From a virus (Duplodnaviria; Caudoviricetes): DNA of 64,000 nucleotides. Location of the stretch: positions 32,001 to 96,000 of the IMG/VR virus record IMGVR_UViG_3300032330_001040. One strand, 5' to 3'. The notes under the pieces are model-generated. The model saw only the letters and a list, made by a program, of their open reading frames with translations, did not search any database and was not told the DNA's origin. The position numbers were made by a program, and so were the translations under genes. Shown here one piece after another: positions 3,942 through 49,825 of the stretch. Within the stretch, counting starts at the first letter, position 1. Each line of letters opens with the position of its first letter.

Positions 3942-3942
3942 A

Positions 3943-14868: not shown

Positions 14869-14883
14869 TTTTTATTATTTTAT

Positions 14884-14908
14884 AGAGAGGACTCAGGTCC
14901 TCTCTTTT
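14884..14908 (+). terminator. Rho-independent terminator after gp19
   Basis: AGAGAGGAC-TCAG-GTCCTCTCT followed by T-rich tract. Confidence 0.65.
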
Positions 14909-14936
14909 ATGTTTTTTTGAATTGAAATAGGACAAT

Positions 14937-16565: not shown

Positions 16566-16583
16566 ATTAATTAGGAGAATAAA

Positions 16584-16763: not shown

Positions 16764-16787
16764 ATAAATAAATTAACAGGATAAAAA

Positions 16788-17321: not shown

Positions 17322-17328
17322 GCCAATT

Positions 17329-17976: not shown

Positions 17977-18014
17977 ATATAAATATATCCAAATAAATCA
18001 AGGAGATTTTCAAA

Positions 18015-19280
18015 ATGGCAAATTTTAATTTATCTGACGCCGCTAAAAGTGTTTTATTAGGCGAAGATTCGAAATCAATTCAAGCATCTACCATTTACGG
18101 TAAAAGACCTGAAGGTGGTAAGTTACCTACATCAGTAGTTACTGGTCAACAAGACGCAGGTAAAATTGGTGATTCACCAACAAAAATGGGCGATGCAAAT
18201 CCAAACTATACTGCTGGCACACCATCTGCCACTCCTCCAGGCGCTACACCTCCTGTAGGTTCACAAAAAGATGGCGTTGGTGCTTCTAAACCAAAAGGTC
18301 AACCAGGCGATGAAGGTACGGCAACAACTCCTGTACAACAAGCTGCTACTGACTATGCCGCTATTCGTGACCGTATTGCTGGTAAACGTGCTGCACAAAC
18401 TATGACTGCTAATCCAGGCGCTACATTTCAATCTTACGGTGAAGAAGCTGAAGTTGAAGGTGATTTAGTTGAAGAAGAAAAAGAAGAAAAAGGTCATGAA
18501 GATGCAGCTCAAGATAAAAAATTAATCAAAAAAATGATTAGTAAGGAAAAAATGAAAGAAGATATGGACGCTTTACTTTCTGGTGAAAATCTTTCAGAAG
18601 AATTTGTAACTAAAGCCACTACAATTTTTGAAGCTGCTGTTATTGCTCGTGCTGAAGAAGTTATTGCTGAAGCCGAAGAGCAGTTAATGGAAGAATTTGA
18701 AATTGCCGTTGAGTCAATCAAAGAAGATTTGGCAGCTAAAGTAGATGACTACCTAAATTATATGGTAGAAGAATGGATGAAAGATAACGAACTTGCAATT
18801 CAATCTGGTCTCAAATCAGAGATTACAGAAGAATTCTTAACTGGTTTAAGAGATTTATTCATTGAACACAACATTGATATCCCTGAAGATAAGGTAGATA
18901 TTGTTGAAGAATTGGCAGCTCAATTAGAAGCTACTGAAGCCGTTCTAAATGAAGAAATTGCTCGTGGTGTTGAATTAACAAAAGCACTAAACGAACAGAA
19001 AAAAATTGAGGCTATCTACACAGCGTGTGAAGGCCTAACGCAAACTCAAGTAGAAAAAATGAAGTCGCTCGCAGAGGGCGTTGACTTTACTACTGAGGAA
19101 GAGTTTACAACCAAACTTGAAACTTTGAAAGAATCATATTTCAAAGCAGATGTGAAAGTTGCAACTACTGATGCTTTAGATGACGAAGTTTTGCTAGAAG
19201 AAGAAAAGAGGACAATTAAATCTTCAAATTCTGAAATCGATTATTATGCAAAAACTATTTCACAGACTTTGGTAAAATAA
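18015..19280 (+). CDS. gp22: Prohead scaffolding/core protein
   Basis: Acidic coiled coil, LSEEF..KATTIFEAAV, VDDYLNYMVEEWM; between gp21 and gp23. Confidence 0.9.
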   Translation: MANFNLSDAAKSVLLGEDSKSIQASTIYGKRPEGGKLPTSVVTGQQDAGKIGDSPTKMGDANPNYTAGTPSATPPGATPPVGSQKDGVGASKPKGQPGDEGTATTPVQQAATDYAAIRDRIAGKRAAQTMTANPGATFQSYGEEAEVEGDLVEEEKEEKGHEDAAQDKKLIKKMISKEKMKEDMDALLSGENLSEEFVTKATTIFEAAVIARAEEVIAEAEEQLMEEFEIAVESIKEDLAAKVDDYLNYMVEEWMKDNELAIQSGLKSEITEEFLTGLRDLFIEHNIDIPEDKVDIVEELAAQLEATEAVLNEEIARGVELTKALNEQKKIEAIYTACEGLTQTQVEKMKSLAEGVDFTTEEEFTTKLETLKESYFKADVKVATTDALDDEVLLEEEKRTIKSSNSEIDYYAKTISQTLVK

Positions 19281-19321
19281 TAAATAAAATACCAAAACAA
19301 GAAACTCACAAGGAGAATTAA

Positions 19322-20647
19322 ATGTATTTAACAGAAGAATTATCAAAAGCTTGGTCTCCAGTTCTGGATCATCCAGAATTAGAACCAATTAAAGACCCGT
19401 ACAAGCGTGCAGTTACAACTGTTATTCTTGAAAATCAACGTCAAGCTATGGCTCAAGACCGTCAACAGTTAAATGAAACTTTAACTGATACTGGTCCTAC
19501 AAACTTAGCTGGTGGTGTTCAAAACTTTGACCCAATCTTGATTTCTTTAGTACGCCGTGCTTTGCCTAACTTAATCGCTTATGACGTTGCTGGTGTTCAA
19601 CCAATGACTGGTCCTACAGGTTTAATTTTCGCAATGCGTGCTCGTTACGAAAATCAATCTGGTGCTGAAGCTTTCTACAATGAAGCAAACACAGTATTCT
19701 CAGGTACTAAATCTATCAACAACCCATACGGTTTTCAAGGTTCATTAGCAACTGATACTGCAAACACATTCCAAAACGTAACTTCTGGTGCAACTACTTC
19801 TGGTATTGCATTCCCAACAGCTAACGCTGAGTTGTTAGGTTCTGAGTCTGGTGCTGCTTTCCAACAGATGGCATTCACGATTGACAAAGTTACTGTAACT
19901 GCTCAATCACGTGCTCTCAAGGCTGAGTACTCATTAGAATTAGCACAAGACTTAAAAGCAATTCATGGTCTTGACGCTGAAACAGAATTGTCTAACATTC
20001 TGTCTACAGAAATTTTAGCTGAAATTAATCGTGAAGTTATCCGTACAATCTATACTTGTGCTGTTGCTGGTGCTCAGTATGGTACTACTTCTGCTGGTTA
20101 CTTTGACTTAGACACAGACTCTAACGGTCGTTGGTCAGTTGAGCGTTTCAAAGGTTTGATTTTCCAAATCGAACGTGATGCTAACGTAATTGCAAAACAA
20201 ACTCGTAGAGGTAAAGGTAACGTATTAATCGTTTCTTCTGACGTTGCTTCTGCTATGGCAATGGCTGGTGTATTGTCTTATACTCCTGCTCTCCAAGCTG
20301 ACTTGCAAGTAGATGATACTGGTAATACATTTGCTGGTTTGTTACATGGCCGTATCAAAGTTTATATCGACCCATATTTTGGTGGTTACATTGCTAACCA
20401 AGAACTCGTAACTATCGGTTACAAAGGTTCTTCACCATATGATGCTGGTATTTTCTATTGTCCATACGTTCCTCTCCAAATGGTTCGTGCTGTTGACCAG
20501 TTTACATTCCAACCTAAGATTGGTTTCAAAACTCGTTACGGTATGGTTGCTAACCCATTTGCAAAAGGTTTAACTGCTGGTACAGGTACATTAGATGCTC
20601 GTACTAACGTTTATTACCGTTTGTTTGGCGTTAAGAACTTGATGTAA
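19322..20647 (+). CDS. gp23: Major capsid protein
   Basis: LISLVRRALPNLIAYDVAGVQPMTGPTGLIFAMR...SRALKAEYSLELAQDLKAIHGLDAE...FQPKIGFKTRYG. Confidence 0.99.
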   Translation: MYLTEELSKAWSPVLDHPELEPIKDPYKRAVTTVILENQRQAMAQDRQQLNETLTDTGPTNLAGGVQNFDPILISLVRRALPNLIAYDVAGVQPMTGPTGLIFAMRARYENQSGAEAFYNEANTVFSGTKSINNPYGFQGSLATDTANTFQNVTSGATTSGIAFPTANAELLGSESGAAFQQMAFTIDKVTVTAQSRALKAEYSLELAQDLKAIHGLDAETELSNILSTEILAEINREVIRTIYTCAVAGAQYGTTSAGYFDLDTDSNGRWSVERFKGLIFQIERDANVIAKQTRRGKGNVLIVSSDVASAMAMAGVLSYTPALQADLQVDDTGNTFAGLLHGRIKVYIDPYFGGYIANQELVTIGYKGSSPYDAGIFYCPYVPLQMVRAVDQFTFQPKIGFKTRYGMVANPFAKGLTAGTGTLDARTNVYYRLFGVKNLM

Positions 20648-20674
20648 TCAAATCACCACAGAGTGATACTTTAG

Positions 20675-20702
20675 AGAGACCTCTTTGGAGGTCTCTTTTT
20701 TT
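20675..20702 (+). terminator. Rho-independent terminator after gp23
   Basis: AGAGACCTC-TTTG-GAGGTCTCT + T run. Confidence 0.85.
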
Positions 20703-20746
20703 ATAAGATAAATAGATATATAAACTTTAGCTTACTGGAGAATAAA

Positions 20747-21715
20747 ATGAAAAAAACTTTAAATTGGGTATTAGCTCACGAGCCATATCACGTTTTCATC
20801 AAAGCTGCCAAAAGTTTTGCTGAAGAAGTTTATGCAGAAACCAATGGAGAATACAAAATTAATGTGGTTAGTTTATCTGAGTGGAACAAACTATCACAAA
20901 CAAATTTAACCAATCACACAACAGACCGTGAAAAAATTATCAATTTAATTGATGATGGTGCGATTGATTTGGCTACTGTTTATGCAAGTACACTTGGTAA
21001 ATTTGATAACGATATTAATGCTTTAGCTATGCCTTTTTTATTCAATAATCATGAAGAAGCAAGCAACATCATTGATGGTCAAATTGGACAACATTTACTT
21101 TCTAAAATTGCCAAACGTAAAAATATTCGAGGATTAACATTTACTTATAGTGGTGGTTTTAAAATTATTCCAAGTACAAAAGCAATTGAAACATTAGAAG
21201 ATTTCTATCGTTTAGATTTAAGTTGCACCAATAATGCTGTATCTATTGGTACCATTGAAGCAGTTGGTGCTAATCCTGTACCAGCAATGATTGAAGATAT
21301 TGCTAAGAAATTATCAATTGGTGAAATTGATGGTGGTGAAACAACATATACACGTTACTTTATTTTAGAACAAGATAAGTATACAAAATATATTAACGAT
21401 AACGAACATAGTTTATTTTTAACAAGCTTAGTTATTAATGAACAACTATGGCAATCTTTAAGTTCAGAAGTACAACAGGTATTTTCTCGTGCGGCTATGA
21501 GAGCGGCAAAGATTGAACGTGAAGATAGTTTGGCGGATAATTTAATTGTTGAAGCACAAGCTGCTAAAGCAGGTATTGTTACTGTAAAAATGAACAACAA
21601 AGAAAAATCTAAATTTGTTAATGCTACTAAAGGTTTGTATAGTGCGTTAAACGGTTACTTTAGTCCAGGTTTATTAAACGAAATTATTGAAAATAAAAAA
21701 TATACAAAACATTAA
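20747..21715 (+). CDS. TRAP-transporter solute-binding protein (DctP-like), no obvious signal peptide
   Basis: FAEEV.AETNGEYKI...ALAMPFLF...GANPVP...GEIDGGE...WQSLSSEVQQVF pattern of the DctP family. Confidence 0.75.
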   Translation: MKKTLNWVLAHEPYHVFIKAAKSFAEEVYAETNGEYKINVVSLSEWNKLSQTNLTNHTTDREKIINLIDDGAIDLATVYASTLGKFDNDINALAMPFLFNNHEEASNIIDGQIGQHLLSKIAKRKNIRGLTFTYSGGFKIIPSTKAIETLEDFYRLDLSCTNNAVSIGTIEAVGANPVPAMIEDIAKKLSIGEIDGGETTYTRYFILEQDKYTKYINDNEHSLFLTSLVINEQLWQSLSSEVQQVFSRAAMRAAKIEREDSLADNLIVEAQAAKAGIVTVKMNNKEKSKFVNATKGLYSALNGYFSPGLLNEIIENKKYTKH

Positions 21716-21718
21716 ATA

Positions 21719-22462
21719 ATGAAAAAACCAAATTTGAATATACCACTTAGTGATTATGATAGTTTATGGGATTGGACCAAGTCACGTAGTAATTACCATT
21801 TCGACAACAATCGTGTGGATGCTCCAGGTTCTGTTTACAAAGTATTAGGTAAATTTGAAAATACTTGGTCTCACTTACTTGATGATATCAAACAAAAATC
21901 ATTTTCAAGTACTTGGAGCAATATTACAACCACAGGCGGTGGCAAACAACGACCAGTTAGTTATGAAAAACGTAAAAATGATATTGCTAAAGGTGGTGGT
22001 AATATTGATGAAATACAATTAACAAACATAACAGAAAATCCAACACAATATCCAGAATTTAAAAAAATTGTAGATTATTTTCATCTAGATGGTCCTGTAG
22101 AATCTAGATTTCATGTACAACTTACTGGTCAAATGTTTACATTACATATTGACCCAAATCACCATAGATTTGCCGAACCTGGTTCTAATCCACTTGGACC
22201 TTTTAATTATGATCCTAATGATATAGTACGAATTACTATTATGTTAGAAGATTGGCAACCTGGACAATTTGTAATTTATGGAAATAGTATTTACCAACAA
22301 TGGCAATCTGGAGATTTTCATATATTCGATTGGCCTAATATACCTCATGCCACAGCCAATGCAAGTCAACAATGTCGAATCACATTACAAATAACCGGAT
22401 TAAGAACCGAAAAAACAAATCAGTTGATTGGACCTAATCCTTTTTTATACCCCATTTTTTAA
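21719..22462 (+). CDS. Hypothetical protein, possible cupin/2OG-oxygenase fold
   Basis: HxD (LHID) and distal His (WPNIPHATAN...RITLQITG). Confidence 0.5.
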   Translation: MKKPNLNIPLSDYDSLWDWTKSRSNYHFDNNRVDAPGSVYKVLGKFENTWSHLLDDIKQKSFSSTWSNITTTGGGKQRPVSYEKRKNDIAKGGGNIDEIQLTNITENPTQYPEFKKIVDYFHLDGPVESRFHVQLTGQMFTLHIDPNHHRFAEPGSNPLGPFNYDPNDIVRITIMLEDWQPGQFVIYGNSIYQQWQSGDFHIFDWPNIPHATANASQQCRITLQITGLRTEKTNQLIGPNPFLYPIF

Positions 22463-37717: not shown

Positions 37718-38179
37718 ATGACAAGCACACTATCTCTATTCCCACAATGGGATAAAATCCACAAATCTTTTGACCCTTTCACCATCGGCTTTGATGAAGT
37801 GATTGATAAAATTCAATCTATGCACACCGAAATGGCCAAGGCTACACCTGGTTATCCTCCATATAACATCAAACAAGTAAAAGACAACAAGTATGTCATT
37901 GAAATGGCAGTTGCTGGTTTTGCTAAATCTGATATTGAAGTTACTTTGGAAGGTGACAAGTTAGTTATCAAAGGTACTTCAAAAGATAATGAAACAGATG
38001 GTTCATATATTTTCAAAGGCATTGCTGGCCGTAATTTTGAACGTACATTTACATTGGCTGATAAGATTGAAATTAAAGATGCCGAATTAACAAATGGTAT
38101 GTTAAAAGTTTGGTTGGAAAACATGGTCAAAGCACAGGATATGGTAAAGAAAATTGCCGTAAAAACCAAAGATGAATAA
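37718..38179 (+). CDS. hsp20: Small heat-shock protein Hsp20 (IbpA-like)
   Basis: YPPYNI...IEMAVAGF...GIAGRNFERTFTLAD...AELTNGMLKV. Confidence 0.93.
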   Translation: MTSTLSLFPQWDKIHKSFDPFTIGFDEVIDKIQSMHTEMAKATPGYPPYNIKQVKDNKYVIEMAVAGFAKSDIEVTLEGDKLVIKGTSKDNETDGSYIFKGIAGRNFERTFTLADKIEIKDAELTNGMLKVWLENMVKAQDMVKKIAVKTKDE

Positions 38180-39187: not shown

Positions 39188-39262
39188 GCTCGGTTCATCT
39201 AGCGGTTAGGATATCGCCCTTTCACGGCGGTCACACCAGTTCGAATCTGGTACCGAGCGCCA
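39188..39262 (+). tRNA. tRNA-Glu(TTC)
   Basis: GCTCGGT/ACCGAGC acceptor, CT-TTC-AC loop, GTTCGAATC, encoded CCA. Confidence 0.93.
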
Positions 39263-39358
39263 TATTGAAGCACATTATTCAAAACCTGCGAGAAGCGGCG
39301 CTTGGTCATCCGGACCCTGACTTGAAAAGTGGAATCTCAATAGTGTGCTTCAATATGG
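39260..39358 (+). ncRNA. Structured inter-tRNA element closed by a 20-bp stem
   Basis: CCATATTGAAGCACATTATT pairs with AATAGTGTGCTTCAATATGG (one G-U). Confidence 0.55.
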
Positions 39359-39433
39359 TTTGTTAGATTAGTTGGTTAAATCGCCTCCCTGTCACGGAGG
39401 AGACCATGGGTTCGAGTCCCATACAGACCGCCA
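39357..39433 (+). tRNA. tRNA-Asp(GTC)
   Basis: GGTTTGT/ACAGACC acceptor, CCTCC-CTGTCAC-GGAGG, GTTCGAGTC, CCA. Confidence 0.93.
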
Positions 39434-39608
39434 GGTGTCAAACTCGGCCTCGGAGTAAATGAGGGGTAGATAACTTTCCAGAAAAGTTATAGTTTAAGCC
39501 ATAGATTAACTAAAAAATCAATTGGCGGCGGTTATGTCCAGACGTAACTAACGATGAATTCCAATCGGGGGCTTGATGACACAAGTAGCCCGTCCTAACC
39601 AGAGCAAT

Positions 39609-39684
39609 GGTGCCGTTAGTGTAACGGTTAGCACCCGAGATTGTGGATCTCGTAGTATGGGTTCGAATCCCATACAGCACCCCA
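39609..39684 (+). tRNA. tRNA-His(GTG)
   Basis: G-1:C73, CGAGA-TTGTGGA-TCTCG anticodon arm, GTTCGAATC, CCA; one C-A mismatch in acceptor stem. Confidence 0.9.
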
Positions 39685-39685
39685 T

Positions 39686-39763
39686 AGTACGGTGGCAGAG
39701 TGGTCCAATGCAGCGGCCTGCAAAGCCGTAAAACCGTGAGTTCAAATCTCACCCGTACTTCCA
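39686..39763 (+). tRNA. tRNA-Cys(GCA)
   Basis: AGTACGG/CCGTACT acceptor, U73, GCGGC-CTGCAAA-GCCGT, GTTCAAATC, CCA. Confidence 0.9.
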
Positions 39764-39791
39764 GTTTGATATATAGAAGAAAGGAGGGCAT

Positions 39792-40355
39792 ATGCCTAGT
39801 GTATTTTTAGTAAGCGACACACATTTTGGCCATAATGGTGTATGTCACTTCATGCAGAGTGATGGCGTAACAAAGCTTAGACCTTGGGATAATCCTGAAG
39901 ATATGGATGAAGAAATGGTCAAGCGTTGGAACGATAGAGTAAGACCTAATGATAAAGTATATCATCTTGGTGATGTTGTAATGAAGCGTAAGAACCTTGA
40001 AATTATGTCGAGGCTCAACGGTGATAAAGTATTGATTCGTGGTAACCATGATATCTTTAAGGATGAAGATTACAGAAAATATTTCCGTGAGCTTCGTGCT
40101 TATCATGTAATGAATGGTATGATTCTTTCTCATATACCATTACATCCAGAAAGTCTTGGCCGTTTTGGTACAAATATTCACGGTCATACCCATTCTAACC
40201 GAGTTATGCTTGACAATCAGATAGATATCCGTTATCATTGTGTATGTGTAGAACAAACAGATTTTACACCGATTCTTTTTGAGGATGTTATTAAAAAGAT
40301 TGAAGCAGAAGGTGGTATGATTGGTTTCAAAAATGGTAATGGTTCAGTAACGTGA
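39792..40355 (+). CDS. Calcineurin-like metallophosphoesterase
   Basis: SDTHFGH, HLGD, RGNHD, SHIP, HGHTH. Confidence 0.88.
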   Translation: MPSVFLVSDTHFGHNGVCHFMQSDGVTKLRPWDNPEDMDEEMVKRWNDRVRPNDKVYHLGDVVMKRKNLEIMSRLNGDKVLIRGNHDIFKDEDYRKYFRELRAYHVMNGMILSHIPLHPESLGRFGTNIHGHTHSNRVMLDNQIDIRYHCVCVEQTDFTPILFEDVIKKIEAEGGMIGFKNGNGSVT

Positions 40356-40384
40356 TTGACAAGTCAACTATATAATGATATACT
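40356..40384 (+). promoter_or_regulatory. Sigma70-like promoter ahead of the ncRNA/tRNA-Gly segment
   Basis: TTGACA-17 nt-TATACT with TG extension. Confidence 0.65.
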
Positions 40385-40459
40385 GGACTTACTGTTGGGA
40401 AACAGCAAAAACTTCCGACTCTCTTGGAGTCCCTGTAACCGGTAAGCAGGATTTTTAAT

Positions 40460-40640
40460 TGTGTTGTTTTGGAAAAAACCTGTGACCAGGTTAATGCACT
40501 CTCACTTACAGCTCTGTCGGCCGGCATCTGTAACGAGTTGTCAAAGCGAAAACGGAGAAACATCGGCGGATGTCCGTATAAGTGGTTAACGATAAAAGCA
40601 AACGATATCGGGTGAACGATATCCATAACAAAACAATACA
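40460..40640 (+). ncRNA. Putative ~180-nt multi-branched non-coding RNA
   Basis: Closing stem TGTGTTGTTTTG/CAAAACAATACA enclosing at least five helices; no credible ORF. Confidence 0.55.
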
Positions 40641-40651
40641 CTTAAGAATAT

Positions 40652-40720
40652 GCGGTGGGTTGGAGAACAGATTGAGATTCCCTCTTAATTATCTTTGTGC
40701 AACTCAAAGACACCGCTCCA
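40652..40720 (+). tRNA. Atypical tRNA-Gly(TCC)-like RNA (69 nt, reduced D-arm)
   Basis: GCGGTG/CACCGC-U-CCA, TTGAG-ATTCCCT-CTTAA arm, TCTTTG-TGCAACT-CAAAGA T-arm. Confidence 0.55.
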
Positions 40721-40725
40721 GATTT

Positions 40726-40799
40726 GCGGGAATAGTTTAGTGGTAAAACGAAACCTTGCCAAGGTTTAGTTGACAGTTCGATTCTGTCTTTCCGCTCCA
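40726..40799 (+). tRNA. tRNA-Gly(GCC)
   Basis: GCGGGAA/TTTCCGC-U-CCA, AAACC-TTGCCAA-GGTTT, GTTCGATTC. Confidence 0.93.
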
Positions 40800-40822: not shown

Positions 40823-41272
40823 ATGTCTAATACATTAAAAAACCTTGAGAGTGCATTGGCTGGCGAATCAATGGCTCATATCAAGTATCGTTATTTCGCC
40901 AAGATTGCTCGTGAAGAAGGATTTGAAGATGTTGCAAAACATTTTGAACACACAGCAGACCAAGAGATTCTACACGCTTGGGGACATCTAGAATTACTTA
41001 TTGGCAAACCATCTACAAAAGAATGCTTAGAAAAAGCCATTGAAGGTGAAACATATGAATTCACTACAATGTATCCAAAGTTTGAAACTGAAGCATCTTT
41101 AGAACAAAATCCTTTAGCAAAGAATGAATTTTCTGAACAGATTGCTGAATCTAAAGAACATGCTGAGAAATTCAAACAAGTATTAGTTAAAGCAGAAAAA
41201 CGTTTCAATGCTTTGAAAAAAGTTGAAAAACGTCATGCTGAAGCCTATCAAAAAGTTTTAGGAGGTCTATAA
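40823..41272 (+). CDS. Rubrerythrin (ferritin-like di-iron domain)
   Basis: ALAGESMAHIKYRYFAKIAREEG...QEILHA...GETYE...MYP...ESKEHA. Confidence 0.9.
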   Translation: MSNTLKNLESALAGESMAHIKYRYFAKIAREEGFEDVAKHFEHTADQEILHAWGHLELLIGKPSTKECLEKAIEGETYEFTTMYPKFETEASLEQNPLAKNEFSEQIAESKEHAEKFKQVLVKAEKRFNALKKVEKRHAEAYQKVLGGL

Positions 41273-41416: not shown

Positions 41417-41492
41417 TGCGGTGTAGCTCAGGAGTAGAGCGCTGGACTCATAATCCAGAGGTCGTTGGTGCGATTCCAATCATCCGCAACCA
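41417..41492 (+). tRNA. tRNA with CAT anticodon (Met, or Ile2)
   Basis: TAGCTCAG D-arm, CTGGA-CTCATAA-TCCAG, T-loop TGCGATT, CCA; one bulged base in acceptor stem. Confidence 0.8.
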
Positions 41493-41507: not shown

Positions 41508-41645
41508 ATGATACAAGAAGAAAAAGATCCTGTTAAAGAACAGGATCAAAAACATGAAGATGAAGAATTTGAGTATATCGAAAAGTATAAAAAATATAGA
41601 GAGGATCAATTAAAGAATAATCCCTTAATTGACCCCGGTTATTAA
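41508..41645 (+). CDS. Small charged hypothetical protein (45 aa)
   Basis: AGGAG RBS; MIQEEKDPVKEQDQKHEDEEFEYIEKYKKYREDQLKNNPLIDPGY; converges on the autotransporter stop. Confidence 0.5.
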   Translation: MIQEEKDPVKEQDQKHEDEEFEYIEKYKKYREDQLKNNPLIDPGY

Positions 41646-43654
41646 AACAATACTTTACCTGATACTTGTACCATATTACTTTTAATATCGTCCCATTGTT
41701 GCTGACCAGCTCTGATTGAAACATCAGCTTTGTCTTTAACTTTATAACTCAAACCACCCAATATCGTTTTATAACTTAAAGTTGTACGACTTGCTTCAGC
41801 AATTACACTTAATTTATCTGTAATAGGTTTATCAACATTCACACCAATTTCTTCACTAAATTTTGTAGTAGAAGTTGGGTCATAAGTAACTGAAGTCAAA
41901 GCTGAACCACCACTAGTTGTACCAGATACTCTATTTTTCTCCCAACGTACACCAGCAAAAGGCCTTACACCATATACTGATGGTGTATACAATCTGCCTG
42001 TAACCCAATTATCTACACCATTTGTTACTGCTGAATTGGACAATCCTAATTCAGGAATACTATAGTTTGTATCATAACGGTTATGAGCATAACCAACATC
42101 ATTTTTAATTAACCAATCTTTTACAGTATATAAACTATACACACCAACATGGTCTTTAGTTGCACTACCGCCAGCATTAGTACCTGTTAATGTTGAATTA
42201 GTCCTATTATATTGTGCACCAACAATCCAGTTGTACTGAATACGTTTATCAGCACCAACACCAAATCGATTACCAGTTAAACTGTAACTATCGGCAACAC
42301 CACCACGATTACCTTCTATTGTTACATAACTTGTAACTTCTTCATCACCAGCAAAACGACCATCTTTTACTTTTTGACGGTCTGTTACACGGCTATCTAA
42401 CCATAAATTATTAGCAAGATTAGAACGCCCAAATTTATTCAATTGGTCAATACGAGCCAAGTAATCTTTATTAGTTTGTGTTTGGTCAATTTCTAATCCA
42501 CTAACACTACTTGTTGCAACAGAATTGGTGGTACTTACAGAAACTACAGGAGTGCCATTTGTTGTAGTAGATGTATTATCACTATATGTTGTAACAGTTA
42601 CAGGAGTAGTTGTTGTAGTAGTTGTTATTGGAGTAGTTTTGGTTGTTGTGATTGTTACAGGAGTCGTATTTGTTACAGTTGTTGTTTGTGTAACACCTAA
42701 TGTCTTATCTGTTTTAGCGCCACGACTATTTGCTCTATCAACAGTTGTAGTTGTTATACCGTAAGCAGCTGAAGATGTAACTACTGGAGTTCCATTGACA
42801 GAACTTGTGGTTACTGAATCAGTTGTTGTGGTGCTTACTACTGTTGGAGAACTTGGTGTTGGTGTACTTGGGCCACTTGGCATAGTTGGGTCATTAGAAG
42901 CGACAGAATTAAATAATGTTCCATTTTTATTTACTGTACCTAGATTATCATTTACAAATAATACAGGACTTAATGATGTATCACCTTGATTGAATATACC
43001 AAAACCTACTTTATAATCACCATCTGTGGAAATATTATAGATAATCTGTTGCCAACCTGTTGAACCATAACTACCTGTAGAATAGTTACCTGTTCCTGGA
43101 TTTGTTGCACCTAATAAAATATATTGAGCACTTACACCATTGATTGTACCAAATGTTGTGGCTGAATTTTTATTAACTAATGTAGCAAGCGAACCGTCAT
43201 TGAATGGAACATAGTCTGTGCTTGTATATACCCAAGCCATCTTAAATGTTGTACCAGCAGTAAATGTAAAATCTTTACTAATCCAAGCCGTACTAGTAAT
43301 AGACCCACCAATTGAAGCTACTTGACTATTTAATGATGAAATACTTGAACTACTTAAACCTAGTGCTGTAGTCATACCACTATAATTTATTGAACTAGCT
43401 GGTTGCAAACCAACCATATAACTTCCTGTATACGGACTAATAGTCCATGTATTAGGACCACAACAAGATATAGTTTGTGTACCATTAACTGTTGCAACTC
43501 CGGTACCGGTCGAACCATAATCTCCATTTTTTGTAACTACACTAGGACCTCCAACCCAACCATTTAGGTCCCCCGTTCCAAAACTTACATCTGGCGTCTG
43601 AGCTAATGCGGACAAGCTTAGAGCCACTAATACTAGTGCTAAAATGCGTTTCAT
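41642..43654 (-). CDS. Autotransporter-like outer-membrane protein (signal peptide, beta-rich passenger, Thr-rich stalk, C-terminal beta-barrel)
   Basis: Sec signal; long T/S/V-rich linker; amphipathic strands (FGVGADKR...VGAQYN...RPFAGVRW) ending in terminal Phe. Confidence 0.75.
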   Translation of the reverse strand: MKRILALVLVALSLSALAQTPDVSFGTGDLNGWVGGPSVVTKNGDYGSTGTGVATVNGTQTISCCGPNTWTISPYTGSYMVGLQPASSINYSGMTTALGLSSSSISSLNSQVASIGGSITSTAWISKDFTFTAGTTFKMAWVYTSTDYVPFNDGSLATLVNKNSATTFGTINGVSAQYILLGATNPGTGNYSTGSYGSTGWQQIIYNISTDGDYKVGFGIFNQGDTSLSPVLFVNDNLGTVNKNGTLFNSVASNDPTMPSGPSTPTPSSPTVVSTTTTDSVTTSSVNGTPVVTSSAAYGITTTTVDRANSRGAKTDKTLGVTQTTTVTNTTPVTITTTKTTPITTTTTTTPVTVTTYSDNTSTTTNGTPVVSVSTTNSVATSSVSGLEIDQTQTNKDYLARIDQLNKFGRSNLANNLWLDSRVTDRQKVKDGRFAGDEEVTSYVTIEGNRGGVADSYSLTGNRFGVGADKRIQYNWIVGAQYNRTNSTLTGTNAGGSATKDHVGVYSLYTVKDWLIKNDVGYAHNRYDTNYSIPELGLSNSAVTNGVDNWVTGRLYTPSVYGVRPFAGVRWEKNRVSGTTSGGSALTSVTYDPTSTTKFSEEIGVNVDKPITDKLSVIAEASRTTLSYKTILGGLSYKVKDKADVSIRAGQQQWDDIKSNMVQVSGKVLF

Positions 43655-43671
43655 TTTTTATTCCTTTATTT

Positions 43672-43824
43672 TTAGTAAAGGCGGTTTATTCGACCGCCAC
43701 CCATAAATCCTTGTATCATTATGTGTGGATAATAATGCTTCATCATTTCAGACATCAACCATACCTGGTACTCACAATATGGTTCAAAATAATACCTATT
43801 TAGAAGTGGCCACATAAGTTCCAT
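43672..43824 (-). CDS. Possible 50-aa ORF between cyclase and autotransporter
   Basis: MELMWPLLNRYYFEPYCEYQVWLMSEMMKHYYPHIMIQGFMGGGRINRLY; overlaps cyclase end and fills the gap. Confidence 0.3.
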   Translation of the reverse strand: MELMWPLLNRYYFEPYCEYQVWLMSEMMKHYYPHIMIQGFMGGGRINRLY

Positions 43825-45796
43825 TCCAATTTTCTGGCTTGCCTTCTTCTAACCTCTCCAACATATTTTTATAATATTGCTCGAGTGGATTTTTTTTCTT
43901 AATTAATTCTTTAAGTGTTTCTATTGCAGTAAACCAATCACCACTATAATAATCTTCTAAGAATTCTTTGTGTTCTTGGGTTTCTTCACCTAAGGTGTAA
44001 ATTCTAACACCAATCTTTTTACCTTTAACAGCAATACAATCTAATTCAACAACAGAATATTCATCTTTAACTCTTTCTGCTGTTAATGGTCCTAAAACAA
44101 TTCTTACACCATATGGTTTACTTTGGCCTTCTAAACGTGATGCAAGATTGACTGTATCACCTAAACAAGTATAATCAAATCTTTGGTCAGAACCCATATT
44201 ACCCACAACAACAGTACCAGTATTGATACCAAGTCCCATACCAAAAGCAGGTACACCTTCTTTAGTAATAATTTCATTGAACGCATCCAAACTGTCCATC
44301 ATTTCAAGAGCAGTTTTTACGGCTAGTTTTGCGTGATTGATTTCTTCTACTGGTGCATTCCAAAATGCCATTTGAGCATCACCAATATATTTGTCTAATG
44401 TACCGCTGTTGGTTAAAATCTTTTCGGTCATTGCTGTCATGTACCGATTCATAATTTTAGTTAAGCCTTGTACATCATCTCCGTAGTGTTCAGAGATTAC
44501 TGTGAATCCTCTTACATCAGTAAACATGATGGACAATTCTTTTGATTCTCCACCCAATACTAATAGTTCAGGATTCTTTTGTAATTTTTCTACTAATGCT
44601 TTTGATAGATATGTTCCAAATTGTTTCTTTATCTGAAGTTTGGCCAAGTACTCAGCCACGAACTTAACTCCATAAGCATGTAACATGATAACGATAAGAG
44701 ACAAACAGATATAAGTACAATCTCCGAGCCAAAGGTTTTGCTCAAAAAGAATACGACTAAAGGCATAACTACCAATAACACTAATAACACCAAAGACAAT
44801 CCCAACATAAGTCCACCTCGTTAAAAATAATAGTAAAATACTTAATACGATTAAAGTTAATATTTCTGCACCATCCATCCAATCAGGTCGTTGTATAACA
44901 ACACCGTTGGCCATCGTGGCAATTACTGCAGCTTGTAAATCTTGAGGCCATACAGCGCCTTTTGCCGTAGGTACAGGATTACTTATGCCTGCAGCCGATG
45001 TGCCTACAATAACAACTGCACCACCAAAATCTTTAGGTAAATCTACCATTGATACTGATTTGTTTTGTTGTGACCAATCAATCCAAATTCGTCCTAGATT
45101 ATCGGTCACAATTGGACCAAATTTAGGAATACGCATCTTCTCTACACCATTCTCATTTACTTTGATTTGTGTAGTTGTATCACCAGCCATCACACGGAGA
45201 GTTTCCATAGAAAGACTAGGATAAAAACGGTCATTTGATTTAATAACTAATGGTATTCTACGATTTACTCCATCAATTTCTGGTAATGTATTTGTTGTAC
45301 CTACACCAACGGCATTTTTTTCTAATTTTGTAATGTTTGCAATAATGCCAGGATATTCAATGAGTGGTGCATTACTTGGACCTATAATAGCAATACCAGG
45401 ACTCTTAGGTTCATTTTTTGATTTGTTTGAAGGAGTATTACTGAGTATTACCGGATATTTGAGTAATGTACTAGCCAGCCTATCGTCTTGGCCACTTCGG
45501 TCAACATCAGGCATAAGAACATTAAAAACAACAAGACCAGCATTCCTTCCATAAAGACTTTCGATAATCTTAGCATATTCACTCCTTGGAAATGGCCATT
45601 GGCCAAATTTTGTTAAAGTTTCTTCATCTATATTAACTGTATAGATGTTATTTTCAGTTATTGGTTTTGATGTAATAACAGTATCAAAATATCTTAATCT
45701 CACCGATTCTACGAAACTTGGATCCATAACACGAATCGATACCAATAAACAAAGTGTCAATAAAGCAGTCCAAGGAGATAGTAATATTTTTTTCAT
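43796..45796 (-). CDS. CHASE2-domain membrane adenylate/guanylate cyclase (class III)
   Basis: VNIDEETL.KFGQWPFPRS...DGVNRRIPL (CHASE2); three TM helices; MFTDVRGFT...DKYIGDA.MAFWNAP...GINTG..VVGNMGS..RFDYTCLGDTVNLASRLEG. Confidence 0.93.
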   Translation of the reverse strand: MKKILLSPWTALLTLCLLVSIRVMDPSFVESVRLRYFDTVITSKPITENNIYTVNIDEETLTKFGQWPFPRSEYAKIIESLYGRNAGLVVFNVLMPDVDRSGQDDRLASTLLKYPVILSNTPSNKSKNEPKSPGIAIIGPSNAPLIEYPGIIANITKLEKNAVGVGTTNTLPEIDGVNRRIPLVIKSNDRFYPSLSMETLRVMAGDTTTQIKVNENGVEKMRIPKFGPIVTDNLGRIWIDWSQQNKSVSMVDLPKDFGGAVVIVGTSAAGISNPVPTAKGAVWPQDLQAAVIATMANGVVIQRPDWMDGAEILTLIVLSILLLFLTRWTYVGIVFGVISVIGSYAFSRILFEQNLWLGDCTYICLSLIVIMLHAYGVKFVAEYLAKLQIKKQFGTYLSKALVEKLQKNPELLVLGGESKELSIMFTDVRGFTVISEHYGDDVQGLTKIMNRYMTAMTEKILTNSGTLDKYIGDAQMAFWNAPVEEINHAKLAVKTALEMMDSLDAFNEIITKEGVPAFGMGLGINTGTVVVGNMGSDQRFDYTCLGDTVNLASRLEGQSKPYGVRIVLGPLTAERVKDEYSVVELDCIAVKGKKIGVRIYTLGEETQEHKEFLEDYYSGDWFTAIETLKELIKKKNPLEQYYKNMLERLEEGKPENWNGTYVATSK

Positions 45797-46866
45797 TTGT
45801 TAATTTGTTTAACGGTTAAATTATTTGTTGTTGAATCTTGATTCTGTAATTGTATTGTGTAAGCATCTTGTGTTAAGTTAATCATATAACCTCTATCTTT
45901 ATTAATCAAAGCTGTAAAATTTTGTTTTACATTTCTCGTTACTTGCCAATATGAACCTTTATCAAAAATATAAATCTGTGTTATTGCATTATAACCAACA
46001 GTAAAAGCTGCCAACATATAATTATCTAAAGCATTAGTCAATAAATTAACATCTAATTCATTAATTGCCAATTCGTTATAATCAGCAAATACATCTTTAA
46101 ATACTTTAACCTCTAAAGCATTTTGGTCCAAACCATTAAATTCTAAAGCTGAACCAGATTTATTAGTATTCTCAATTGTTTTTTGTGTAATCTCTTTTGG
46201 AGGTTTTACAATTAACATATTATTAATTGCCGACTCATTCAACATTAACAAAACCGGTCTCATTGGTCTTGTTTCATTAGATGTAGTCATTGTGGCTTGA
46301 AATGCTTGATTAAGCACCACAGAACCCATAGCAGTTTGTACTTCAATTTCACCAACAGAACCATCTTTATTCGGTAATAGTATAATCATTGATTGACCTA
46401 TTTCATCAACCGTCATACTAAATGCCGTGCCACGAACAGCAATTGTGGCAGTCGGAGTATTGATTGCAACTTTACTAGGGTTATTGTGTGCGATACTACC
46501 AGAAGCATATCGCACAGTTCCCATTGCTACTTTTAATCCTAACTTACCCGCAGATTTATTCTTTGGGTCATATACAAAATCATCAATAACAAGTTTTGAG
46601 TTTTCTGTTACTCTAACTTGTGTATCATCTTCAAAAGAAATACCTACAACACCGTTACCGGTTTGTACCAAATCATTACTATCAACACCAACATTCTTTT
46701 TAACTTCTATACTAGATTTGTTTCTAGTAATTGAAGCAACACCTTTTTGTTCTGTTACAGAACCAATTGCAGCATTAGTGTTGAACGATAGAAGTAATAT
46801 TGTTAGTACCACTAATACCACTACCTGTGATATTAACAATCGCTGTGTTTGCATTTGTTGCTCCAT
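45793..46866 (-). CDS. FecR-domain periplasmic protein
   Basis: Signal-like segment; DLVQTGNG...ISFEDDTQVRVTENSKLVID...GTVRYASG...TPTATIAVRGTAF; true start may lie slightly downstream. Confidence 0.85.
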   Translation of the reverse strand: MEQQMQTQRLLISQVVVLVVLTILLLSFNTNAAIGSVTEQKGVASITRNKSSIEVKKNVGVDSNDLVQTGNGVVGISFEDDTQVRVTENSKLVIDDFVYDPKNKSAGKLGLKVAMGTVRYASGSIAHNNPSKVAINTPTATIAVRGTAFSMTVDEIGQSMIILLPNKDGSVGEIEVQTAMGSVVLNQAFQATMTTSNETRPMRPVLLMLNESAINNMLIVKPPKEITQKTIENTNKSGSALEFNGLDQNALEVKVFKDVFADYNELAINELDVNLLTNALDNYMLAAFTVGYNAITQIYIFDKGSYWQVTRNVKQNFTALINKDRGYMINLTQDAYTIQLQNQDSTTNNLTVKQINK

Positions 46867-47536
46867 CTTGTGTAATACTTACTGAGTTGTATCCACCAAT
46901 TACATTAAGGTCAATTTTATGTCCACTAGCGCCTGATTGTGTTGTTGTGATATTATTTCTATTACCTGCAATTGCAATTTTAGTTTCGACATTTTTACTA
47001 TTAATATTACTAACTACTGTATTATAATTACTTGTACTCTGATTATCAGTAGAAACTCCACCATTACCAAGTGTACTACCAATATTTAATTGATATCTGT
47101 AATTATCGGCTTGTCCAGTTGTTCCAATATTTAAAGTAGTGGAGTTGTTATCACCATTAATATCAATACCAAGTAAACCATTATTGGTACCAAGATTTCC
47201 CATATTAAGTACTGTCGCATTAGTATTACCATTTTGTCTAATGTAAGCTGTTGAGTCTCCACCAATAAAATTACCCGTAATATTATTATTCATACCATCT
47301 TGAATGACGGTTAAATTCATATTATTTCCATCAACAACAAATGCTGGAGAAATTAAATTATTGGGGTCACCAAAATTATTTCCAGAACCTGTTTGTGTAA
47401 TAGATACGGATGACATATCAGCGTTTGTCTGGTCAATATAAACAGAGTTGCCTCCACTATCTACTGCACCAGATGAGCCCATAATAAAAGTTAAGGCGAT
47501 AGCAATAACTATTTGGCCAAACTTTAAGGTTTTCAT
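46775..47536 (-). CDS. Secreted curlin-like repeat protein (CsgA/CsgB-like)
   Basis: Signal peptide; repeated N/S-x-x-x-I-x-Q-x-G-x-x-N units (SVSITQTGSGNN, LTVIQDGMNNN, AYIRQNGNTN, SVSITQDG); next to csgG. Confidence 0.7.
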   Translation of the reverse strand: MKTLKFGQIVIAIALTFIMGSSGAVDSGGNSVYIDQTNADMSSVSITQTGSGNNFGDPNNLISPAFVVDGNNMNLTVIQDGMNNNITGNFIGGDSTAYIRQNGNTNATVLNMGNLGTNNGLLGIDINGDNNSTTLNIGTTGQADNYRYQLNIGSTLGNGGVSTDNQSTSNYNTVVSNINSKNVETKIAIAGNRNNITTTQSGASGHKIDLNVIGGYNSVSITQDGATNANTAIVNITGSGISGTNNITSIVQH

Positions 47537-48606
47537 TTTGTTTCCTTTAAATTGTCTTTTTTAACATACATCTTTGAACCATCCTTTAATGTTACTTCAG
47601 CAACATCATTATATTCTGTTGATACAACTTTTACTTCTGTATCTTTAACGTAATATTTGAAAGGTCCGTATAGTGGTCCATTCAAGTTTGATTTGTTATA
47701 ATATAGTTTTACAAAATCTTTTAAATAATAAATTGTTGGTTTTTCTTCTATAATTGGTTTAACAACTTCTTTAACTACGACTGGCTCCGGTTTTACAACT
47801 TCTTCTTGTTTACCTGATTTAAATTTCCATAAACCTTTTTTTTCACCATCGAAAATTAATTCTTCTACTGCTTTTTCTGTTGCAGCTTTAAGAACAAAAA
47901 TACCAACTTCTGTTGAGGACATACCAATTTCATTCTCAAAGGCTTTTGTTCCTTCATCAAAAAATTTAAATGTTGCTATACCAACTTGATAACTCAATAA
48001 TGTCTTTCTTACATTAGTTGTCAATAACACCTCACCCGTTTGGGTGCTGACCACTCTTAATGATATCGTTACAACATCTTCATTATATGATGTTGATGGA
48101 CCAATTCCTAACCATCTCCAACCAAATCCACCTGTTCTTATGTTCGTATCATATGAAACAATGACTGCTTCAAGTATCATACCAGCATAAAGTATTGGTC
48201 TTAAATTGGATGGATCTTTTGCCTCATCTCTTGCCGACCTAATCAGTTGCCGTTCTTTTAATAAATTATCAAGTCCAACTCTTTCTACCACTCTAAACCA
48301 TTGTCCATCACCAATGTCTTGTAATGCTTTAATTAATATGCCTTCACCACCTTGTGTTACTGCTGTAGAAAAACTTGCAACACCAGGTTGTTGTTTTCTT
48401 TGACCAGTCGCATCTTTAAATGAATATACTGCAACAACAATTTTACCATCATGTGGTGGAGGTACTTCTCTAACAACCTTTTTAGTTTCTTGTGGTTGTT
48501 GTAATACTTCAGCATCATTCGTTTCAAATTTCATTGGAGAAAGTGGGCCTGTAGCGGCACAACCAAATAATCCAAAACACATTAAAATAATCAATATTTT
48601 TTTCAT
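47533..48606 (-). CDS. csgG: Curli secretion channel CsgG (lipoprotein) with extra C-terminal domain
   Basis: Lipobox LFGC; VAVYSFKDATGQRK...FSTAVTQG...WFRVVERVGLDNLLKERQLIR...VTISLRVVSTQTGEVL. Confidence 0.92.
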   Translation of the reverse strand: MKKILIILMCFGLFGCAATGPLSPMKFETNDAEVLQQPQETKKVVREVPPPHDGKIVVAVYSFKDATGQRKQQPGVASFSTAVTQGGEGILIKALQDIGDGQWFRVVERVGLDNLLKERQLIRSARDEAKDPSNLRPILYAGMILEAVIVSYDTNIRTGGFGWRWLGIGPSTSYNEDVVTISLRVVSTQTGEVLLTTNVRKTLLSYQVGIATFKFFDEGTKAFENEIGMSSTEVGIFVLKAATEKAVEELIFDGEKKGLWKFKSGKQEEVVKPEPVVVKEVVKPIIEEKPTIYYLKDFVKLYYNKSNLNGPLYGPFKYYVKDTEVKVVSTEYNDVAEVTLKDGSKMYVKKDNLKETK

Positions 48607-49043
48607 TAGAATTTTAAAGTCCCAATTGGTATTTGAACTTGTGTGATATTACCATCAGCACCGGTAACAGTTAATGAAATTTGGTCGGCTGTTTTGGTAT
48701 AAACAATTGTGTTACCTTCAATCGTAACAGTTCCACTATTTTGTGGATTTTCTCCAAAAAGATTGTTAACTAATTGTGTAGACAACTGAGCATATACACG
48801 GCTTTCGAAATTATTTAAAAACTTTTGAAGATTTGTATTATTGGCGGCTGTTGCCGCATCTTTGATAGCTTGTAGTCTAGCGGCTTCTAAAGATTGTCTA
48901 CGAGTAGTTTCAGTATTTTCTATTGTTTGAACGTGTGAAGAATACCCAACACCACTAAATGAAGGAGATTTAAATTGAAACGTTTGTTCTGCACATACTA
49001 AACTACTTTTTAGTATTAGTAGAATCATTATTAGTTTTTTCAT
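48606..49043 (-). CDS. csgF: Curli assembly factor CsgF
   Basis: Signal peptide then FQFKSPSFSG (CsgF FxNPxFGG-like)...FLNNFESRVYAQLS...ITQVQIP. Confidence 0.8.
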   Translation of the reverse strand: MKKLIMILLILKSSLVCAEQTFQFKSPSFSGVGYSSHVQTIENTETTRRQSLEAARLQAIKDAATAANNTNLQKFLNNFESRVYAQLSTQLVNNLFGENPQNSGTVTIEGNTIVYTKTADQISLTVTGADGNITQVQIPIGTLKF

Positions 49044-49278
49044 CTTTAATGTCTCGCATCATCAACACAATGTTGATTTTTTGGTTTAACCTAATTAAAT
49101 CATTATCCAACATTCGTACACGGTCAATTAAAGCAATTAAAACATTACTGGCTTCTGAAAGAACAGGTTTAATCTCCTGTGTAGCCCATTTCCATACATA
49201 AAATATAAGATAACCCATGCCTCCAGCGGCAACAATAGGAAAACCATATTTGTTAATTAACTCTGCTATATCCATCAT
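49003..49278 (-). CDS. Small single-pass membrane protein (GFPI motif, coiled coil)
   Basis: LINKYGFPIVAAGGMGYLIFYVWKW + LIDRVRMLDNDLIRL; paralog of 49469..49747. Confidence 0.7.
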   Translation of the reverse strand: MMDIAELINKYGFPIVAAGGMGYLIFYVWKWATQEIKPVLSEASNVLIALIDRVRMLDNDLIRLNQKINIVLMMRDIKDEKTNNDSTNTKK

Positions 49279-49466
49279 ACAGGTATGTATTTTTCTGTTT
49301 GATATTTTTGTCTAGCTAATTTTGTTAATTTTGCTTGACAAGTTCTAATTTCTTTTATTAAATCAGTTTCTTTTGCATCAATTAGGTAAGAAATGGCAAA
49401 ATTGGCTGCATCTTCAAAATTGATAGCTGCATCTTCTAAATCATCCATACTTTTATATAACGGCAT
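49275..49466 (-). CDS. Hypothetical protein
   Basis: 63-aa ORF tightly packed in the operon. Confidence 0.5.
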   Translation of the reverse strand: MPLYKSMDDLEDAAINFEDAANFAISYLIDAKETDLIKEIRTCQAKLTKLARQKYQTEKYIPV

Positions 49467-49468
49467 TT

Positions 49469-49747
49469 TTAATCCTTTCTCGCATCATTTTTTCCATCGG
49501 CTCGTGCAATACGGTCGATATCTGGTTTTACACCCATAGCGCTTGACATCAGAGTATCAATTCTGATAACATCATGGTTCATTGTTTTAACACGATTGTC
49601 TAATGCGGTAATAATACCACTCAACGATTTGACAGAGGATGTAACCCCAGCAAGAATGAATTTTAAAGTCAAAAACACAAAATAACCAGCAGAAATTGCT
49701 GCGGCTATTGGAAATCCTACTTCAGCAACTAATTTAAAAAAGTCCAT
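49469..49747 (-). CDS. Small single-pass membrane protein (GFPI motif, coiled coil)
   Basis: LVAEVGFPIAAAISAGYFVFLTLKF + ALDNRVKTMNHDVIRID. Confidence 0.7.
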   Translation of the reverse strand: MDFFKLVAEVGFPIAAAISAGYFVFLTLKFILAGVTSSVKSLSGIITALDNRVKTMNHDVIRIDTLMSSAMGVKPDIDRIARADGKNDARKD

Positions 49748-49754: not shown

Positions 49755-49783
49755 TTGACAATTGAGTTAAATTATAGTATAAT
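49755..49783 (+). promoter_or_regulatory. Consensus sigma70 promoter for the gp43 operon
   Basis: TTGACA-17 nt-TATAAT. Confidence 0.75.
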
Positions 49784-49817: not shown

Positions 49818-49825
49818 TATTTATG
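49818..49825 (-). promoter_or_regulatory. Candidate late promoter for the minus-strand curli operon
   Basis: CATAAATA on minus strand, identical to the motif before gp13, ~70 nt upstream of the first ATG. Confidence 0.45.

Follow-up and report, generated by a model that had tools for sequence, protein, structure and literature searches.

A block of nine open reading frames (ORFs) on the minus strand of a T4-like phage is predicted to encode a minimal but complete set for type VIII (curli) secretion, namely a CsgG pore, CsgF and a curlin-repeat subunit, together with a FecR-domain protein, a CHASE2 adenylate cyclase and an autotransporter (Table 1). It lies in a 64,000-nucleotide stretch of DNA (the window; bases 32001-96000) of IMG/VR record IMGVR_UViG_3300032330_001040, a linear virus record of 114 kb that is approximately 69% complete. 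The phage core of curli, FecR and adenylate cyclase is already known; the block described here is a variant of it, with an autotransporter-anchored head and an extended CsgG. An earlier note on this DNA, which counted only the pore as already reported, overrated the novelty of the set: curli, FecR and adenylate cyclase together in phages were published in 2022 (PMC9599517). We see about an even chance that the block represents an alphaproteobacterial-type envelope module, mobile and self-contained, which would be expressed in the infected Gram-negative cell and in which the FecR protein would couple the envelope to cyclic AMP (cAMP).

Proteins encoded by the block

The mature N-terminus of the CsgF homologue reads TFQFKSPSF, which we take to resemble the CsgG-binding N-terminal peptide of E. 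coli CsgF. In the CsgG homologue the CsgG domain occupies residues 52-262 and is followed by a C-terminal extension of 90 amino acids (residues 268-357; window 47536-47805), for which protein-atlas features provide the one lead, to an SH3b-like domain (score 0.91). The secreted curlin-repeat protein taken alone scores 15.2 bits against Curlin_rpt, which is under the Pfam cut-off of 20.7, but a profile of 25 viral curlin homologues matches the solved curlin 8c50 (4.7e-15) and CsgA 8enq (3e-4); the curlin of the earlier note is thus upheld by its family profile. CsgC- and CsgD-like genes were not recognised by Pfam in the block, and the rest of the record was not searched for them.

Table 1. Positions in the window of the block, its genes and its signals (aa, amino acids; nt, nucleotides)
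Feature	Position	Strand	Size and evidence
Block	41642..49747	minus	nine ORFs
Late-promoter-like motif CATAAATA, T4-type	49818..49825	minus	71-77 nt upstream of first ATG
Small membrane protein 1	49469..49747	minus	92 aa; N-terminal GFPI motif, one transmembrane segment, C-terminal helix
63-aa ORF in variable slot between the paralogues	49275..49466	minus	63 aa; no family match
Small membrane protein 2	49003..49278	minus	91 aa; paralogue of small protein 1
CsgF homologue	48606..49043	minus	145 aa; signal peptide; PF10614 1.1e-16, covering positions 3-132 of 132
CsgG homologue, lipoprotein	47533..48606	minus	357 aa; PF03783 5.2e-50; signal peptide, lipobox LFGC
Secreted curlin-repeat protein	46775..47536	minus	253 aa; at least 5 xQxG/N repeat strands
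Exported FecR-domain protein	45793..46866	minus	357 aa; PF04773 7.6e-9
CHASE2 class IIIb adenylate cyclase (predicted)	43796..45796	minus	666 aa; PF05226 1.1e-35; PF00211 (Guanylate_cyc) 4.3e-21
Autotransporter	41642..43654	minus	670 aa; PF03797 2.9e-12, 47.3 bits against a cut-off of 26
Two terminator-like hairpins, right after the autotransporter stop	41526..41636	minus	

The cyclase was found to carry its CHASE2 domain at residues 15-323 (PF05226) and hydrophobic segments at about residues 3-29 and 305-382, and its hydropathy fits a protein with one transmembrane segment ahead of a periplasmic CHASE2 domain and about three behind it, the catalytic domain lying in the cytoplasm. All of FTDVRGFT, DKYIGD and DYTCLGDTVNLASRLE occur in the sequence, and the catalytic hexad is complete (D427, K469, D473, T543, N550 and R554). 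In class III cyclases these positions correspond to two metal-binding Asp, the substrate Lys and Thr, and the transition-state Asn and Arg. Of 101 homologues from viruses and bacteria, 94-101 retain each of the six, and catalysis therefore appears to be under selection. The best solved relatives belong to class IIIb (the CyaB1 fusion 6fht, Pseudomonas aeruginosa CyaB 3r5g and Spirulina CyaC), and alignment to CyaB 3r5g gives the same DYT...VNLASRLE pattern. The enzyme is assigned by these residues to subclass IIIb, adenylate-type, and is predicted to synthesise cAMP. The intact catalytic motifs reported in the earlier note were thus confirmed, while its Lys/Asp substrate pattern has to be replaced by Lys469/Thr543, the Thr lying seven positions before the catalytic Asn; the ATP specificity that it proposed is retained, Lys/Thr being likewise an adenylate cyclase pattern.

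The FecR-domain protein consists of a signal or anchor segment, a FecR beta domain (residues 35-195), a low-confidence linker and a small C-terminal beta domain (residues 290-354). Foldseek analysis relates the FecR domain to the C-terminal signalling domain of PupR (6ovk; 9.6e-4, root-mean-square deviation 3.2 over 145 columns) and the small domain to the periplasmic plug domain of MpIBP (5ix9; 1.3e-3, template modelling (TM) score 0.79). The periplasmic signalling domain of PupR binds an outer-membrane transducer, and 5ix9 is the plug domain of a LapA-type adhesin, lying beneath an outer-membrane pore. Members of the family end in a conserved strand, ...TT-x-ITI-x-Q, in which the Gln is invariant; neither the family profile nor the C-terminal 73 residues gave a significant sequence match in the PDB. 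A cytoplasmic anti-sigma domain was not found in the protein, which leaves no room for one since the hydrophobic signal/anchor begins at residue 6.

It has been described that FecR remains with type VIII genes in phages without the cyclase, namely podophages (PMC9599517). FecR genes were also identified beside CHASE2 proteins without type VIII genes at seven loci (six alphaproteobacterial and one deltaproteobacterial); cyaD1 of Sinorhizobium meliloti adjoins the FecR-domain gene smc02177 (PMC5498481), and in Burkholderia a FecR protein is paired with a CHASE2 protein (PMC5192318). Because FecR accompanies type VIII genes alone, CHASE2 alone or the two together, it is the obvious candidate to join the secretion half of the block to the signalling half, as an element common to them.

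The autotransporter possesses an N-terminal hydrophobic segment, a folded head, a beta-domain and an aromatic (Phe) end, as is characteristic of type Va autotransporters; from its N-terminus it comprises a signal peptide, a head (residues 1-254; window 42893-43654), a Thr-rich stalk, a beta-barrel (Pfam match at residues 449-613) and the C-terminal Phe. The head was modelled as a beta-sandwich (predicted local distance difference test (pLDDT) 81, predicted TM score (pTM) 0.82). Its highest VIA-align scores were to a porphyran carbohydrate-binding module (CBM; 8xmz, Z 9.5), the C-terminal domain of a tailspike of phage CBA120 (Z 8.9) and further CBMs (Z 8.7 and 8.4), and its best Foldseek hit was to CBM61 (E 2.8e-4, TM at most 0.58). 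The assignment of the head to a CBM-like fold is thus moderate and not decisive.

Homologues of the head (38-45% identity) occur in about 15 related loci as part of a protein of 460-507 amino acids with a curlin-repeat C-terminal half (hhalign probability 92.5%; Pfam Curlin_rpt 32.8 bits), the gene of which is usually located between those of FecR and the cyclase. The barrel is joined to unrelated passengers in other loci, including the closest relatives (L005 and L006), and the corresponding slot of phage HTVC008M holds a PA14 and curlin protein. Among 969 metagenome homologues of the head, the top 120 are all head-plus-barrel proteins, and BLASTP of the autotransporter against the second curlins of HTVC008M and Melnitz showed no homology. 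Since the same head is found either with a curlin tail or with its own barrel, only the anchor appears to have been swapped, which suggests that the block has a conserved output, the presentation of a probable glycan-binding head on the cell surface. The autotransporter slot itself, on comparison of these loci, changes quickly.

Both small membrane proteins match phrog_18771 (4.6e-35 for protein 1 and 3.7e-34 for protein 2) and, in agreement with the earlier note, are paralogues with a GFPI motif. They are 26% identical, with the motifs GFPI...GY and LxDRxxxxxxDxIR in common, and the hydrophobic segment of protein 1 spans residues 12-36. Protein 1 is 66% identical to a protein of Melnitz and 51% identical to one of HTVC008M, the only two phages among 50,697 deposited genomes with homologues of it, and both carry the block. 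The family has 951 cluster representatives. No family was identified for either protein in Pfam, NCBIfam or the protein atlas, where the nearest named cluster, as a lead only, is YvrJ (0.89). The published label of these proteins as histidine kinases ('HK') was rejected, because they consist of only 91-92 amino acids, contain a single hydrophobic segment and match no kinase domain in Pfam or NCBIfam. A holin identity was likewise not adopted for protein 2, as it rests on a PHROG match of 21 residues (2.1e-4).

The 63-amino-acid ORF between the paralogues, which the earlier note had counted with the block, is not conserved: it was matched in just one of 80 related loci, and in the closest relative (L005) its place (3712-4131) is taken by an unrelated membrane-like ORF of 139 amino acids. 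It is probably not part of the module, its slot being a variable insertion site.

Viral and bacterial relatives and genomic setting

Relatives of the cyclase in IMG/VR number at least 577, with identities of 60-83% for the best 80. Among related viral loci, 39 extend at least 7 kb to either side of the cyclase, and every one of them encodes both small proteins, CsgF, CsgG and FecR, a co-occurrence in related phages on which the proposal of the earlier note depended. Sixteen of these loci are collinear with the present phage, fifteen have the small-protein pair on the opposite strand and eight have the block from CsgF to FecR inverted. When 23 well-flanked loci were collected with a divergent small-protein homologue as seed, the cyclase was detected in 22 and CsgG in 19. 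A possible exception to the linkage is locus L181, where a small-protein pair with flanks of 9 kb and 7 kb has no detected CsgF, CsgG, FecR or cyclase.

Three near-complete phages of 328, 337 and 343 kb (L015, L017 and L042, one with terminal repeats) carry the block. Compared with these, the cyclase is 62-65% and small protein 1 75-84% identical, whereas the DNA polymerase is only 29-35% identical. The block is therefore far better conserved than the polymerase and has moved between distant phage lineages.

The form csgF-csgG-curlin-FecR-CHASE2 cyclase was identified, in the same order and orientation, in three bacterial metagenome-assembled genomes (MAGs), one of Henriciella (L098, on a contig of 396 kb) and two of Caulobacteraceae (L089 and L091); the scan with the FecR profile covered one genome per prokaryotic species. 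Their proteins are 36-50% identical to those of the phage, and the cyclase possesses CHASE2 and an intact hexad; small membrane proteins and the autotransporter are lacking. Genes for TonB-dependent receptors, FAA hydrolase, methylmalonyl-CoA mutase and acyl-CoA dehydrogenase surround the loci of L098 and L089. The GC content of the linked loci (0.51-0.53) is near that of the flanks in these two, and one flank of L091 is clearly higher. L098 and L089 thus represent a true chromosomal context. The linked form is rare in bacteria. A CsgG-family match was obtained in 102 of 151 Caulobacterales genomes, a tally that includes a weak match in one unpublished genome (G052) on which none of the loci or conclusions given here depends. 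In a CsgG tree made by quick search with midpoint root, ordinary bacterial CsgG proteins form one clade (support 100), and the three linked bacterial proteins group with viral L016 (support 95) between this clade and the main viral radiation; a tree of this kind does not settle the direction of transfer.

Other cyclase relatives in MAGs were rejected as evidence of a host. Those in Bacteroidetes-labelled MAGs are on contigs with phage genes. Other module-carrying contigs (L088, L090, L093-L097 and L099 among them) were assigned to MAGs of Luteolibacter, Flavobacteriaceae, Legionellales, Pirellulales, Rhodobacteraceae and actinobacteria; these eight also encode the phage-specific small proteins and are probably phage DNA placed in bacterial bins by mistake. 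On one of the Bacteroidetes-labelled contigs with phage genes (L084), five radical-SAM-like genes were observed in a run just downstream of the module copy (14062-21832).

The nine ORFs of the earlier note were found at the same coordinates, and Pfam assignments agree with its parts list. Its description of the block as the only one on the minus strand of the window also holds, as all remaining minus-strand ORFs of at least 100 amino acids overlap plus-strand genes and the GC skew is negative at 42-50 kb only, i.e. at the block. The tight packing that it described is seen from small protein 1 through the cyclase, where neighbouring genes abut or overlap by 1-92 nt (FecR and cyclase by 4 nt), and is followed by a gap of 141 nt before the autotransporter gene. 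The GC content of the block is 0.341 and that of the phage 0.334, and it is therefore not a fresh host fragment, an origin that the earlier note had named as one that would undo its proposal. When the block was compared by megablast with 50,697 phage records, a set from which close records may be absent, no match was obtained.

The block is bordered on one side by genes for a clamp loader, Hsp20, a tRNA cluster and a phosphoesterase, and on the other by those for gp43 DNA polymerase (approximately 51% identical to cyanomyophage polymerases), UvsX and gp41 helicase. A late-promoter-like motif upstream of the first gene suggests late expression of the block. The window has only three copies of ATAAATA on its minus strand and 15 on its plus strand, about nine of the latter lying 24-71 nt upstream of gene starts, mostly within the first 21 kb. 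Of the two hairpins after the autotransporter gene, the first has a stem of 16 pairs (41636-41602) and the second a stem of 9 pairs (41547-41526) with a run of T after it.

Back to back with the late-type motif, within a divergent gap of 114 nt, a perfect TTGACA-17-TATAAT promoter consensus (49755-49783, plus strand) points to the gene preceding that of the DNA polymerase. Beyond the other end of the block, the plus strand encodes Hsp20 (37718-38179), five tRNAs (Glu, Asp, His, Cys and Gly; 39188-40799), a calcineurin-like phosphoesterase (39792-40355) and a rubrerythrin-like protein (40823-41272; PF02915, 2.4e-18). A sixth tRNA with encoded CCA (41418-41488, plus strand; Rfam 56.5 bits, anticodon CAT by eye), missed by ARAGORN, converges on the 3' end of the block.

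Proposed function and competing explanations

As a mobile envelope module, the block would have its parts exported by the Sec system. CsgG and CsgF would build an outer-membrane pore late in infection, through which the curlin would be secreted to polymerise on the surface. The CBM-like head would also be shown there, attached to its own barrel in this phage and by a curlin-repeat tail to the fibre in many relatives. The periplasmic FecR protein would stand between the pore and fibre pathway and CHASE2, such that the envelope or secretion state would set cytoplasmic cAMP synthesis, and the cAMP would act on receptors of the host and not of the phage. The benefit may be an altered cell surface late in infection (receptor masking, phage exclusion or sticking to neighbours) along with a shift in host physiology driven by cAMP.

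In support of this module stand the linkage in 39 of 39 viral loci, the conserved catalytic residues, the occurrence of the five-gene order in bacterial chromosomes, the pairing of FecR with CHASE2 elsewhere and its PupR-like fold, the two anchors of the head and the late-promoter-like motif. Trans-envelope signalling, as proposed in the earlier note, is partly supported: its list of parts is right, and there is a real precedent in Sinorhizobium, where NsrA provides a route from the outer membrane to CHASE2 cyclases. Several results weigh against the envelope module and its coupling to cAMP. No cyclic nucleotide (cNMP)-binding domain was found in six phage genomes (this record, Melnitz, HTVC008M and the three near-complete large phages), and in S. 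meliloti signal perception does not require smc02177 (PMC5498481); on both points the signalling part of the proposal is weakened. In 20 further loci of Caulobacterales where CsgG and CsgF are strong matches, neither FecR nor cyclase genes were found within 9.5 kb, and the coupling is therefore not general to type VIII systems. The AlphaFold2 model of the FecR protein is of moderate confidence (pLDDT 68, pTM 0.36), its matches to 6ovk and 5ix9 are weak (E ~1e-3) and serve as leads only, and the Z values of the head (8-9.5) barely exceed the background of 7-8 stated for the tool. CsgE is likewise missing, as the earlier note had seen, with no PF10627 match in the 114-kb record at its 69% completeness; alphaproteobacterial type VIII systems are described as being without CsgE too (PMC9599517). 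Finally, no clumping was seen in Melnitz-infected cultures by Buchholz et al. (PMC9004378).

In a further reading, fibres or lectin heads, together with CsgG, would report an extracellular event such as cell contact, superinfecting phage or material of lysed neighbours through FecR to CHASE2, and cAMP would set lysis timing or exclusion. Such an outside-in sensor would be a new kind of phage decision circuit, and we regard it as improbable. An unlikely role for CsgG and CsgF is that of a gated outer-membrane pore that times lysis, the pinholin- or secretin-like idea of Buchholz et al. 2022; the small proteins would then be holin-like and the cyclase would be the timer input. The late-promoter-like motif, the weak PHROG holin match over the first 21 residues of small protein 2, the position of the small proteins as the best-conserved genes of the block and the absence of clumping with Melnitz (PMC9004378) are all in keeping with it. 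It does not account for the retention of curlin subunits with conserved repeats, for the head-curlin fusions or for the N-terminal motif that CsgF retains; moreover, the same gene order without the small proteins occurs in bacterial chromosomes, where lysis timing is senseless, and an outer-membrane pore would not depolarise the inner membrane. The tight gene linkage (39 of 39 loci), and the argument that cAMP feeds CsgD control in Gammaproteobacteria (PMC9599517), would also suit a regulatory flow from cAMP to expression, in which FecR and the cyclase regulate type VIII or host biofilm genes (Wittmers et al. 2022). We allow this only a small chance: a cAMP-binding transcription factor was not found in the six phage genomes, CsgD was not recognised in the block (by Pfam; the rest of the record was not searched), the block is apparently driven by a phage late-type promoter motif, and the cyclase appears to be built for periplasmic input, because CHASE2 is an extracytoplasmic sensor domain.

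The absence of CsgE from the 114-kb record would fit an ungated CsgG pore that imports nutrients or cofactors, with FecR, named after ferric citrate signalling, as a hint at iron (PMC7029224, PMC9599517). This is very unlikely, since the FecR protein is without an anti-sigma domain and the block contains no recognised gene for a sigma factor or TonB-dependent transducer, although no search aimed at them was made; curlin, CsgF, the CBM-like heads and the cyclase would also be left unexplained. That the genes are unrelated passengers of a hypervariable island, or a decaying host fragment, is suggested by their location in a part of T4-like genomes that varies and is flanked by replication genes, and by the variation of the 63-amino-acid ORF and the autotransporter slot. 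The probability of this is close to negligible in view of co-occurrence in 39 of 39 loci across rearrangements and lineages with approximately 30% identical polymerases, intact catalytic residues, a block GC content equal to that of the phage, and the same gene order in bacterial chromosomes.

The block is very widespread and has moved between unrelated phage lineages. If it controls the surface of the infected cell or its cAMP in abundant aquatic bacteria, as the envelope module would, it bears on aggregation, superinfection and carbon flow. Bacteria related to these Henriciella and Caulobacteraceae are easier to culture and manipulate than SAR11, and coupling of FecR, CHASE2 and curli could be studied in a bacterium.

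Comparison with known systems

CsgF, CsgG and associated genes were described in pelagimyophages by Zaragoza-Solas et al. 2020 (PMC7029224), and the pore of Melnitz was modelled, with a proposed role in lysis timing, by Buchholz et al. 2022 (PMC9004378). The full viral cluster was described by Wittmers et al. 2022 (PMC9599517) as one or two 'HK' genes, CsgF, CsgG, CsgA/B, FecR, often a second CsgA/B, and adenylate cyclase; it was seen in SAR11 and OM43 phages, in podo- and myo-pelagiphages and in ocean metatranscriptomes, with alphaproteobacterial affinity. By tblastn, HTVC008M (KC465899 7181-13807) and Melnitz (MZ577097 50118-56876) have the same families in the same order as the present phage, and all three genomes are T4-like, but the cyclase and CsgG are just 37-43% identical to its own. 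A second curlin gene between those of FecR and the cyclase is frequent in the published region of myophages and is absent here; instead, the present phage possesses a head on an autotransporter barrel after the cyclase and a CsgG with the 90-amino-acid C-terminal extension. The CHASE2 domain and the class IIIb type of the cyclase were not named in the papers on the viral region.

In common with the curli system of E. coli and Salmonella (csgBAC-csgDEFG), the phage block has the CsgG lipoprotein pore, CsgF and curlin repeats with xQxGxxN strands. It differs in having no CsgE and in adding FecR, the cyclase, the autotransporter and the small membrane proteins. With FecA-FecR and PupB-PupR signalling, it has a periplasmic FecR-fold domain in common (6ovk), whereas the phage protein is without the anti-sigma domain, and none of the genes in the block was identified as encoding an extracytoplasmic function sigma factor or TonB-dependent transducer, no aimed search having been made.

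For S. meliloti, it has been described that the outer-membrane barrel NsrA is required for the CHASE2 cyclases CyaD1, CyaD2 and CyaK to raise cAMP, which acts through Clr (PMC13001267, PMC7529298). NsrA is a large unrelated barrel, and this pathway has a dedicated Crp-type receptor, Clr, unlike anything found in the six phage genomes. The CHASE2 cyclases of S. meliloti respond to free ribosomal protein uL2. The 'BiofilmReg' operon of Burkholderia (PMC5192318) encodes an exported LysM-FecR protein beside a CHASE2 sensor and is tied to biofilm formation; its output is a histidine kinase and response regulator and not a cyclase, and it contains no type VIII genes.

The Henriciella and Caulobacteraceae loci have the same five families as the phage block and are flanked by housekeeping genes. 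In the papers on the viral region, FecR and the cyclase were said not to be inside bacterial type VIII operons, a statement that these linked loci qualify. The linked bacterial operons and the swap of anchor for the putative glycan-binding head are useful additions to the published module.

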